From NCBI RefSeq assembly GCF_003334815.1, contig NZ_QOWO01000024.1: a DNA stretch of 64,000 nt; one strand, written 5' to 3'. The stretch is from Escherichia coli. Its GTDB lineage: Bacteria; Pseudomonadota; Gammaproteobacteria; Enterobacterales; Enterobacteriaceae. Shown in pieces: positions 16,566 to 19,900 of this stretch. Within the stretch, counting starts at the first letter, position 1. Each line of letters opens with the position of its first letter. Below the pieces are notes generated by a model that worked only from the letters and a program-made list of their open reading frames with translations, did not search any database and was not told the DNA's origin. Both the position numbers and the translations under genes were made by a program.

Positions 16566-17723
16566 TTATTGTCCTGCGAGTTGCTGAAGGGCTGTGATGA
16601 CATGGTCGGCATCGGCGGTAGTCATATCCGGGAACAGCGGCAAAGAACAGATGCGTTCGCTATTCCATTCGGTATTCGGTAACGACAGCGTGGGAAAACG
16701 CTCGCGATAATATTTTTGTGTGTGAGCGGCGCGGAAATGTAACCCGGTACCAATGCCTCTTTCTTTTAACGCTTCCATCAACGCATCGCGACTGATACCA
16801 CAACGTTGTTCATCGACACGAATAATAAACAGATGCCAGGCGTGAACGTGCGGCCAGGCGGGAAGGCTTAATGGCTGAAAGGGGAGAGCTGCCAGTGCTT
16901 GCTGATATTGCTGGGCAATTTCGCGCCGACGGGTGTTGAGGTGCTCTAATTTGACTAACTGTGTCAGGGCAATCGCGGCGTTAATATCGGTCAGATTGTA
17001 CTTATAGCCCGGTGTTAAGACTTCAGCCTGCGGTGCACGGCCCCAGGTTTGTCTGTCATAGGCATCGACACCCAGACCGTGAAATTTCAGCATCCGTAGC
17101 TGGCGGGCAAGGTTTTCATTATCAGTTACAATCAGGCCACCTTCAGCACAGGTAATATTTTTAATGGCATGAAATGAAAAAATAGCGGTACCTTTTGCGC
17201 CAATATGTCGCCCTTTGTAATACGTACCGACGGCATGGGCAGCATCTTCGATAACTGCGATGCCGTAACGTTCGCCAATGGCGCGAATGGCGTCAATATC
17301 TGCTGGCGCACCGGCATAATGCACCGGAATGATGGCTTTAGTGCGTGGCGTAATGGCTGACTCGATAGCTTCAGGCGTGACCATCAGCGTATCGCGGTCG
17401 ACATCCACCATTACCGGCGTTGCACCCAACAAGGAAATCATATTGAGGGTTGAAACCCAGGTCAGGGAAGGCGTAATCACTTCATCGCCCTTGCCAATTT
17501 TCAACGCCATTAGCGTGATATGCATTCCGGCGGTGGCTGAACTGACCGCGATGGCATGCTGATTTCCCGTCAACTGGCAAAAAGCTTGCTCAAGCGCCTG
17601 ATTCTTCGGACCGGTTGTGATCCAACCGGATTCGAGAACCTCTTTAACTGCAGCGAGTTCCTCCACGCCCATTGCTGGTCGCGAAAAAGGCAAAAATTCT
17701 GACATTGCTTTTCCTTCCGCCAT
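16566..17723 (-). CDS. arnB: UDP-4-amino-4-deoxy-L-arabinose--oxoglutarate aminotransferase ArnB
   Basis: ORF-track frame trimmed to [10 protein letters not shown] (start could be the next Met at 17705); PLP aminotransferase (DegT/ArnB) family. Confidence 0.86.
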
Positions 17724-17803
17724 TGAATACCTGTCCACTTATATTTGCTATAAAGAGTGTTGTGTATATTTTGCCATTTGGAGCGAAATTTTAAGGATAG
17801 AAT

Positions 17804-17820
17804 ATTAACTTAACCTTAAG
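17804..17820 (-). promoter_or_regulatory. Putative PmrA (BasR) box upstream of arnB
   Basis: Minus strand reads CTTAAG-GTTAA-GTTAAT (two hexamer half-sites with 5-bp spacer), followed about 10 bp downstream by TAAAAT; about 95 bp upstream of arnB start. Confidence 0.55.
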
Positions 17821-18012
17821 AAACTAATATTAGACGTAAATATTGAAATTTTTATATTTTTTCTTATTTAGGCTTTGCATTTGGCAAAATTTTGAGGCAT
17901 TTTGCCGACATCGTAGGATTTTTAATATTACACCAACTGCGAATTATCGCCAGAAATGTAGCTCAATTTCACGGTAATTGTCTGGTTGCGCTTGTCTATA
18001 GGTGGAGTTTAC

Positions 18013-18615
18013 GTGTTAGCTTTTTGCCGCTCTTCGTTGAAGTCAAAAAAATATATCATCATTTTACTGGCGCTCGCTGCAATTGCCGGACTGGGTACTC
18101 ATGCCGCCTGGAGTAGCAATGGTTTGCCACGTATCGACAATAAAACACTGGCCAGACTGGCACAGCAGCACCCGGTTGTCGTTTTGTTTCGTCATGCTGA
18201 ACGTTGCGACCGTTCAACCAATCAATGCTTGTCAGATAAAACAGGTATTACGGTTAAAGGTACCCAGGATGCCCGTGAACTGGGCAACGCTTTTAGTGCT
18301 GATATCCCTGATTTCGATCTTTATTCCAGTAATACCGTCCGGACCATTCAGTCGGCTACCTGGTTTTCAGCGGGTAAAAAATTGACGGTAGATAAACGAC
18401 TTCTTCAGTGCGGTAATGAGATTTATAGTGCAATTAAGGACTTACAAAGCAAAGCGCCTGATAAAAATATCGTTATTTTCACCCATAATCATTGCCTGAC
18501 ATATATTGCTAAAGATAAGCGTGACGCGACATTTAAACCTGATTATCTGGATGGTTTAGTCATGCATGTGGAAAAAGGCAAAGTTTATCTGGATGGGGAA
18601 TTCGTTAACCACTAA
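18013..18615 (+). CDS. ais: Ais (PmrG-like) histidine-phosphatase-fold protein
   Basis: ORF-track frame trimmed to GTG at 18013 (VLAFCRSS); signal peptide; histidine phosphatase motif LFRHAERCD. Confidence 0.75.
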
Positions 18616-19079: not shown

Positions 19080-19357
19080 AGGGATATTCCTTATAAATAA
19101 AAAGAAACCATGAGAATACGGTAACTCACAAATATGTGAAAGTGACAGTAATCTCTTTTGCGATGATAACTGTACTTATTATTATTTTTGTGTGTATCGA
19201 TAAAGTGTGTTTATTTTTTCGGCATTTAATTATTTAAGAAGTATTTAGTTACAATAAGTGACTAGATCCTTTTTTTCGCTCATTGAATCCTCTGTGCCAG
19301 GCAGTACAATCCCGCAGCTTTGGGAATTTTGATTAATTGCTTGTGGGAAAGGGGATA

Positions 19358-19900
19358 ATGAAAAAAATTGCGCTAGCAGGTCTGGCCGGAATGCTGTTGG
19401 TTTCTGCATCGGTCAATGCAATGAGCATCAGCGGTCAGGCGGGTAAAGAATACACCAATATTGGTGTCGGTTTTGGGACTGAAACGACGGGCCTGGCGTT
19501 AAGCGGTAACTGGACACATAACGACGACGACGGTGATGTCGCTGGCGTGGGGCTGGGGTTGAATCTGCCTCTCGGGCCGTTAATGGCGACCGTTGGCGGA
19601 AAAGGCGTTTACACCAACCCGAATTACGGCGATGAAGGTTATGCCGCAGCGGTAGGAGGTGGTTTGCAGTGGAAAATTGGCAACAGCTTCCGTTTGTTTG
19701 GCGAGTATTACTACTCTCCGGATTCGCTCTCCAGCGGTATTCAAAGTTATGAAGAAGCGAATGCTGGCGCGCGTTACACCATTATGCGTCCAGTCAGTAT
19801 TGAGGCGGGTTATCGCTACCTGAATCTGTCGGGTAAAGACGGTAACCGCGACAACGCCGTGGCTGACGGCCCGTATGTTGGGGTTAACGCCAGTTTCTGA
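19358..19900 (+). CDS. yfaZ: YfaZ-family outer membrane protein
   Basis: ORF-track frame trimmed to MKKIALAGLAG (180 aa); signal peptide; C-terminal aromatic residue (NASF) typical of beta-barrel OMPs. Confidence 0.75.
   Translation: MKKIALAGLAGMLLVSASVNAMSISGQAGKEYTNIGVGFGTETTGLALSGNWTHNDDDGDVAGVGLGLNLPLGPLMATVGGKGVYTNPNYGDEGYAAAVGGGLQWKIGNSFRLFGEYYYSPDSLSSGIQSYEEANAGARYTIMRPVSIEAGYRYLNLSGKDGNRDNAVADGPYVGVNASF

Follow-up and report, generated by a model that had tools for sequence, protein, structure and literature searches.

A PmrA (BasR) box upstream of arnB in Escherichia coli that very probably also serves the divergent gene ais

The arnB-ais intergenic region

The genes arnB and ais lie divergently on the Escherichia coli chromosome, from which the window (by which is meant the whole stretch of 64,000 nucleotides analysed here) is taken. 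Of 5426 complete E. coli genomes, 5419 contain positions 17400-18300 of the window, annotated there as arnB and ais, and the spacer separating the two genes is identical to that of strain K-12 W3110. The genes and the region between them are as follows:

16566-17705, minus strand: arnB (UDP-4-amino-4-deoxy-L-arabinose aminotransferase), first gene of arnBCADTEF, according to the RefSeq annotation
17706-18012, no strand: divergent control region, AT-rich (29-32% GC), with an entry in Table 1 of PMC3661553
18013-18615, plus strand: ais, also called pmrG (LPS core heptose(II)-phosphate phosphatase), with a GTG start and a GGTGGAG Shine-Dalgarno sequence

The length of the spacer depends on which start codon is taken for arnB. 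Two in-frame ATG codons occur at 17705-17723 (minus strand), giving proteins of 385 amino acids (MAEGKAM...) and 379 amino acids (MSEF...). The original prediction put the spacer at 289 bp (17724-18012), a figure that holds with the older, 385-amino acid start at 17723; counted from the RefSeq start at 17705, the spacer measures 307 bp. That the spacer is AT-rich, as was also claimed, is borne out by its GC content of 31.8%, against 51.6% for the window. The nucleotides between the two ATG codons, ATGGCnGAAGGAAAA, are conserved across Escherichia, Salmonella, and Citrobacter; they provide an AAGGA Shine-Dalgarno sequence for the downstream ATG, the RefSeq start.

The ais/arnB spacer is one of 78 "promoter islands" reported to be bound by H-NS, listed for E. 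coli K-12 as entry 2363626_315, ais(-)/arnB(+), with H-NS code K (PMC3661553, Table 1). The AT-richness of the spacer (29-32% GC) was computed from its sequence; the binding of H-NS is as given in that literature table. Homologues of ais are limited to Escherichia, Salmonella, some Citrobacter, and Intestinirhabdus, and ais adjoins arnB in 5 of 80 arnB loci (two from Escherichia, two from the C. amalonaticus group, and one from Salmonella).

The arn operon is switched on by Fe3+, Al3+, or mild acid through the sensor PmrB, and by low Mg2+ through the relay PmrD; its products add aminoarabinose to lipid A, resulting in resistance to polymyxin. The phosphorylated PmrA dimer binds two half-sites arranged head-to-tail, bends the DNA, and contacts region 4 of sigma-70 and RNA polymerase. 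The operator that controls arn switches the main chromosomal route to tolerance of polymyxin and colistin in E. coli, Salmonella, and Klebsiella, and marking it correctly matters both for annotation and for the reading of promoter mutations in resistant isolates.

The PmrA box and the arnB promoter

On the arnB side of the spacer, the following features can be recognized:

17804-17820, minus strand: PmrA/BasR box CTTAAG-GTTAA-GTTAAT, a direct repeat with 11-bp periodicity
17820-17815, 17814-17810, and 17809-17804, minus strand: the parts of the box, namely half-site CTTAAG, spacer GTTAA, and half-site GTTAAT
17788-17793, minus strand: -10 hexamer TAAAAT of the PmrA-dependent arnB promoter, 10 nt past the box
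17779-17782, minus strand: predicted arnB transcription start, at about 17781, from geometry (7 +/- 2 nt after the -10 hexamer)

The repeat CTTAAG-N5-GTTAAT had been claimed for the arnB strand, upstream of a TAAAAT hexamer resembling a -10 element. Both were located there, the repeat at 17820-17804 and the hexamer at 17793-17788, with a gap of exactly 10 nt between them; across box and hexamer, the minus strand reads tttCTTAAGgttaaGTTAATattctatcctTAAAATttcg. Relative to the predicted arnB start (about 2363874, plus strand, in U00096.2), the box extends from about -39 to -23 and, because of the 10-nt gap to the -10 hexamer, replaces the -35 element. The same geometry is found at the pho boxes of PhoB, tandem direct repeats that also replace the -35 element and from which activation proceeds through region 4 of sigma-70. 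The box upstream of arnB is like the pho box in its 11-bp periodicity and in ending 10 nt upstream of the -10 hexamer, and differs from it in what is recognized (TTAA/TAA here, TGTCA there) and in the signal to which it responds. Judged by this geometry, that of PmrA/PhoB-type promoters, the observation was right to see in the repeat a PmrA-type box for arnB. The arnB half of the finding is thus correct and re-identifies an operator that was previously known; in itself it adds nothing new. Transcription starts at the predicted arnB and ais positions were not found in the set of Kim 2012, which was obtained under non-inducing conditions.

Set against the loose consensus YTTAAK-N5-YTTAAK, the box has one mismatch (G for Y), and it matches exactly the published Salmonella-type pattern CTTAAK-N5-xTTAAT. 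Experimentally verified Salmonella boxes consist of CTTAAG as half-site 1 and xTTAAT as half-site 2, 5 bp apart (PMC3973317). At pbgP, ugd, and pmrCAB, the two hexamers of the pmra-box, set 5 nt apart, overlap the -35 element, and the PmrA dimer, the sigma-70 holoenzyme, and promoter DNA occur in a single complex (PMC10570014). A preprint on E. coli marks in the arn promoter, by inspection, a PmrA consensus "with a slight modification", and the modification fits the single G-for-Y mismatch of the box. In the same species, the response of a ParnB-gfp reporter to Fe3+ and mild acid depends on pmrA, and pmrG/ais is regarded as PmrA-activated and has been measured as such.

Might a repeat of this sort arise simply by chance? 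TTAA-rich strings are common in AT-rich DNA, and the loose consensus, with up to one mismatch allowed, is met 3 times in the 64-kb window, where 3.17 matches are expected; since the count is at chance level, this consensus is uninformative. On these grounds one could regard the repeat as a functionless product of an AT-rich spacer. The specific pattern CTTAAK-N5-xTTAAT, however, is unique in the window (1 match against 0.04 expected in 64 kb; 4 of 100 shuffles contained any). The original prediction had looked to a weight-matrix scan of both strands as a check. A matrix of 23 columns was trained on boxes upstream of arnB with Escherichia left out, from 80 arnB loci fetched from other species, and among 128,000 positions it ranks 17801-17823 (minus strand) first, with 22.8 bits against 11.5 for the next, a result that is partly circular because the training sites were picked by pattern. 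Three controls nonetheless argue for a genuine signal in the matrix. The scan recovers box1 of Klebsiella pneumoniae, CTTAATATTATCCTAAG, at -171 (published position, -170); the other two controls are the strand bias of the box and its fixed distance to TAnnnT, given next.

Conservation tells the same way against chance. A CTTAA-anchored box within 300 nt is present on the arnB strand in 75 of 78 loci; the opposite strand carries one in 10 of 78, and shuffled sequence in 4.7%. The box followed after 10 nt by TAnnnT occurs in 67 of 70 distinct enterobacterial arnB contexts (any other spacing in at most 2) and in all 14 ais-linked loci, counts that overstate the number of independent events, the species compared being related; the box as such is conserved in the 14 ais-linked species and in about 75 arnB loci. 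Seven divergent spacers from E. coli have 10 variable positions, none of them inside the box or the -10 hexamer. The E. coli box aligns with the Salmonella box and is orthologous to footprinted PmrA sites. Strand-specific conservation with a fixed 10-nt geometry over about 70 distinct loci, invariance within E. coli, and this orthology effectively refute the notion of a chance repeat, whose probability is negligible.

Because the TTAA cores are palindromic, the box read on the plus strand scores 9.9 bits. The mean reverse-strand score, a measure of two-fold symmetry, is 9.4 bits for ais-linked boxes versus 4.4 bits for the others, a weak trend among boxes that are phylogenetically non-independent.

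Two known systems come closest to the E. coli site, which by all its sequence-level features is of their kind. One is the PmrA box in the pbgP(pmrH)/pmrG intergenic region of Salmonella enterica, the orthologous locus, reportedly treated by Wosten & Groisman 1999. The gene pair is identical and likewise divergent, and the box lies at -115 from the arnB start codon in both organisms. In Salmonella, the box reads CTTAAT-GTTAA-TTTAAT and is followed after 10 nt by TAGGGT; in E. coli, the half-sites are CTTAAG and GTTAAT. The other is box1 of K. pneumoniae pbgP, CTTAAT-ATTAT-CCTAAG, which has been footprinted (PMC2565834) and for which there are NMR data and the crystal structure 4S05 (PMC3973317) as well as a cryo-EM activation complex (PMC10570014). 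Like the E. coli box, it is a direct repeat with a 5-bp spacer, upstream of arnB, that overlaps or replaces the -35 element, and TACATT stands exactly 10 nt past it, as TAAAAT does in E. coli. It differs in its second half-site (CCTAAG), in having an extra PhoP-dependent proximal promoter and a longer leader, and in that ais is not adjacent.

Regulators other than PmrA might dominate the spacer: QseB, or PhoP acting directly, as in Klebsiella and Yersinia. For QseB there is the preprint, which also marks, for the arn promoter of E. coli, a QseB consensus "with a slight modification" and reports that arnB is up-regulated in a pmrA qseC double mutant, and the QseB consensus does find a match with 2 mismatches at 17935-17950 (minus strand). 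Such matches, however, occur at chance frequency, with 38 in the window against 32.6 expected. As to PhoP, no PhoP-box-like site with up to 2 mismatches was found in the spacer, and E. coli and Salmonella are reported to lack a PhoP box at pbgP (PMC2565834). Either regulator would in any case add to PmrA, not replace it, and we consider it quite unlikely that QseB or PhoP dominates the spacer.

A putative promoter upstream of ais

On the other side of the box lie features that could belong to ais:

17821-17874, no strand: AT-rich linker with A/T tracts, 54 nt from the box to the ais element, poorly conserved in sequence
17875-17880, plus strand: -35-like hexamer TTGCAT of the inferred ais promoter (TTGCNT in 12 of 14 ais-linked species)
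17898-17903, plus strand: CATTTT, the -10-like hexamer of the putative ais promoter, with a conserved GG in front of it
17910, plus strand: predicted ais transcription start (A), from geometry (7 nt past the -10-like hexamer)

On the ais side, comparison brings out the pattern TTGCNT-N17-CATTTT. The 17-nt internal spacer is kept in all 14 ais-linked species, and so is the string GCATTTT; directly downstream of CATTTT, conservation among the same 14 species collapses. E. marmotae and E. whittamii have TTTTAA in place of TTGCNT, and in 7 spacers from E. coli the hexamer TTGCAT is invariant. On the pmrG side of the Salmonella spacer the element is also present, as TTGCTT-N17-CATTTT, with a linker of 44 nt compared to 54 in E. 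coli. The pattern is found in all loci with ais and in none of 70 arnB loci without an adjacent ais. From its sequence and distribution, we infer that TTGCAT-N17-CATTTT (17875-17903) is a weak, activator-dependent sigma-70 promoter for ais. Each of its hexamers matches the consensus at 3 of 6 positions, and a simple promoter scan did not list it. The predicted start would correspond to about 2363745 (minus strand) in U00096.2, with a leader of about 103 nt and the centre of the PmrA box at about -98.

The distance between box and putative promoter takes few values. CATTTT begins 67 nt beyond the end of the box in 7 species and 77 nt beyond it in another 6, with C. tructae alone at 64 nt, and the linker is 44 or 54 nt long across ais-linked species; this phase-locked length rests on few independent indel events, because the 14 species are related. 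In C. tructae (locus L091), the sole exception to the 67/77 rule, a gene of 486 amino acids with an ArnT-like PF02366 (PMT) domain, at 820-2280 on the minus strand, is divergent from ais and occupies the place that arnB has in E. coli.

Several other readings of the ais side were tried and set aside. A generic sigma-70 scan gave GTGAAA-N18-GATAAT (minus strand) and TAGACG-N16-TATATT (plus strand), 2 hits where 1.4 are expected, neither of them conserved across species; TAGACG/TATATT as the ais promoter was rejected on its chance frequency and lack of conservation. The hexamer TAGGAT (17914-17919) was considered as the -10 element of ais and rejected, as positions 17913 and 17914 are polymorphic in E. 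coli and the hexamer is unconserved outside Escherichia. The conserved element itself might be read as a degenerate class-II PmrA box, TTTAAG-GCATT-TTGCGT, a reading in which the second half-site is poor, E. coli has TTTGAG, and TAnnnT stands 10 nt downstream in no species. Readings by eye as a site for sigma-54, sigma-28, CpxR, marbox, Fis, or IHF were in no case consistent across species.

Across the spacer and -10-like hexamer of the putative ais promoter runs an 8-nt inverted repeat, GGCAAAAT...ATTTTGCC, at 17882-17907 (plus strand). This repeat is peculiar to E. coli, being imperfect in E. albertii and absent in Salmonella, and is probably fortuitous.

The original prediction had seen no equally good box on the ais side, noting a lone TTTAAT half-site. 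The scan agrees: every other position in 17650-18100 scores at or below 0 bits on both strands. The half-site was located at 17921-17926 (plus strand); it is without a partner half-site and is conserved solely within Escherichia. One may nonetheless ask whether ais has a PmrA site of its own, the arnB box being irrelevant to it, with TTTAAT at 17921-17926 or TTTGAG at 17891-17896 as candidates. In its favour, E. coli does have TTTAAT, and TTTAAG stands at the place equivalent to TTTGAG in 8 of the 14 ais-linked species. Neither candidate, however, has a partner half-site 11 bp away, all positions outside the box scoring below 0 bits; the TTTGAG of E. coli, the same in all of 7 strains, has no TTAA core; and in that register no species has TAnnnT 10 nt downstream. 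The TTTAAT half-site, conserved in Escherichia only, would moreover fall at about +11 to +16 of the inferred ais transcript. A separate site would also leave unexplained the distal box of loci that have lost or never had arn neighbours, described below, and we regard it as very unlikely.

Loci with ais but without arn

Four loci have the gene order menC-menE-(pmrD)-ais and no arn operon: those of C. freundii (L088), C. rodentium (L089), another Citrobacter (L094), and Intestinirhabdus alba (L090). All four have kept, upstream of ais, both the box in its "arnB" orientation and TTGCNT-N17-CATTTT. The option that ais shares the site, one of the two that the original prediction had entertained, is therefore favoured by the comparison, since the box persists upstream of an arn-less ais and is phase-locked to an element specific to ais.

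More has been kept than the box, in a stretch some 120-330 nt before the start of ais (locus coordinates about 2170-2380). Ten nucleotides past it, on the side away from ais, stands an outward TAnnnT hexamer, TATATT in L088, TAATAT in L089 and L094, and TAGAAT in L090, pointing toward menE or pmrD at their 3' ends. Between box and hexamer, the 10-nt spacers are mutually unrelated. That box and TAnnnT were kept while the spacers diverged implies, on the strength of these sequences, that the outward promoter is still under selection in the arn-less loci. Alternatively to a role in the control of ais, the outward unit may drive an unrecognised PmrA-dependent transcript, antisense or short, toward menE or pmrD. 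A search of Rfam with the spacer and the arn-less loci found no RNA families.

A single box probably shared by two promoters

Taken together, the sequence comparisons argue that the box at 17804-17820 is the known PmrA (BasR) operator of arnBCADTEF, that it is the sole PmrA site in the spacer, and that it very probably also controls ais. According to this model, a single box would be common to both genes, lying at about -39 to -23 for arnB and at about -98 for ais (about -88 in species with the shorter linker). With respect to ais, the box would be in reverse orientation, and PmrA would act at the ais promoter as an upstream, class-I-like activator, possibly countering silencing by H-NS. Since the linker is held to 44 or 54 nt, PmrA would probably lie on the polymerase's face of the helix at the ais promoter. 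A PmrA dimer is not known to activate from -98 in reverse orientation.

A more specific version of the model can be put forward tentatively, as something short of probable: that a single dimer site for PmrA works in two architectures, as a class-II box for arnB and as a reverse, distal, phase-locked site for ais, and that the unit retained is the box together with its outward -10 hexamer. If this is true, then control of ais needs the outward promoter itself or the complex of PmrA and polymerase formed there.

Control of ais could also be indirect, without any contact of PmrA with polymerase at the ais promoter. PmrA-driven firing of the divergent class-II promoter might send negative supercoils into the ais promoter, or the binding of PmrA might displace H-NS from the AT-rich spacer (counter-silencing). 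The setting is suitable for either, in that the spacer, at 29-32% GC, is among the promoter islands reported to be bound by H-NS, and the predicted starts of arnB and ais are back-to-back, about 129 bp apart. The outward -10 hexamer, kept in 4 of 4 arn-less loci despite 10-nt spacers that differ fully, is also what one would expect if the firing of that promoter were what counted. Neither supercoiling nor counter-silencing, however, predicts distances from box to ais promoter of 67 and 77 nt, one helical turn apart. Indirect control is a contender that we judge rather unlikely.

PhoP promoters whose boxes are distal or reversed, and the counter-silencing of H-NS at acquired genes rich in AT, have reportedly been described (by Zwir in 2012 and Will in 2014). 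The ais side would be like them in having a box far upstream and reversed, a weak promoter, and AT-rich DNA bound by H-NS, and ais has a narrow taxonomic range. It would be unlike them in its regulator, PmrA, and in a strict helical phasing that is not described for counter-silencing; the architecture of the ais side is here a prediction from sequence.

The phase-locked arrangement of ais with a shared box, and its persistence in loci without arn, were not found in the accessible literature; the Salmonella paper of 1999 may cover part of it. If confirmed, the ais side would be a modest addition to the map of the PmrA regulon and would show a single dimer of a response regulator at work in promoters of two architectures.

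Other signals in the window

Upstream of yfaZ (ORF 19337-19900) there is a direct repeat at 19231-19249 (plus strand), which can be read as TATTTA-AGAAG-TATTTA or alternatively as TTTAAG-AAGTA-TTTAGT. It matches the PmrA consensus with 1 mismatch and the PhoP box with 2, and it adjoins the TACAAT -10 hexamer of a yfaZ start that Kim 2012 mapped 97 nt upstream of the gene. Its geometry is unlike that of class-II activation, and the repeat is probably due to chance or in a position of the repressor type.

Matches resembling the PhoP box number 23 in the window, an enrichment over the 12.9 expected. One of them, GGTTTT-GCAGG-TGTTTA at 9757-9773 (plus strand), has a single mismatch and lies in the 3' part of menE, about 300 nt upstream of pmrD (ORF 10065-10361). 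It is possibly related to the known control of pmrD by PhoP.

Two signals have been reported within ais. The set of Kim 2012 assigns to arnB a start at 2363241 (plus strand) of U00096.2, which corresponds to about 18414 (minus strand) in the window and so is antisense inside ais. Seen under non-inducing conditions, this start is 691 nt upstream of arnB and would read through the whole control region. Genomic SELEX with a minor sigma holoenzyme places a peak of type D (intragenic) inside ais as well, at about 18509 (U00096.2 position 2363146; PMC5493296).
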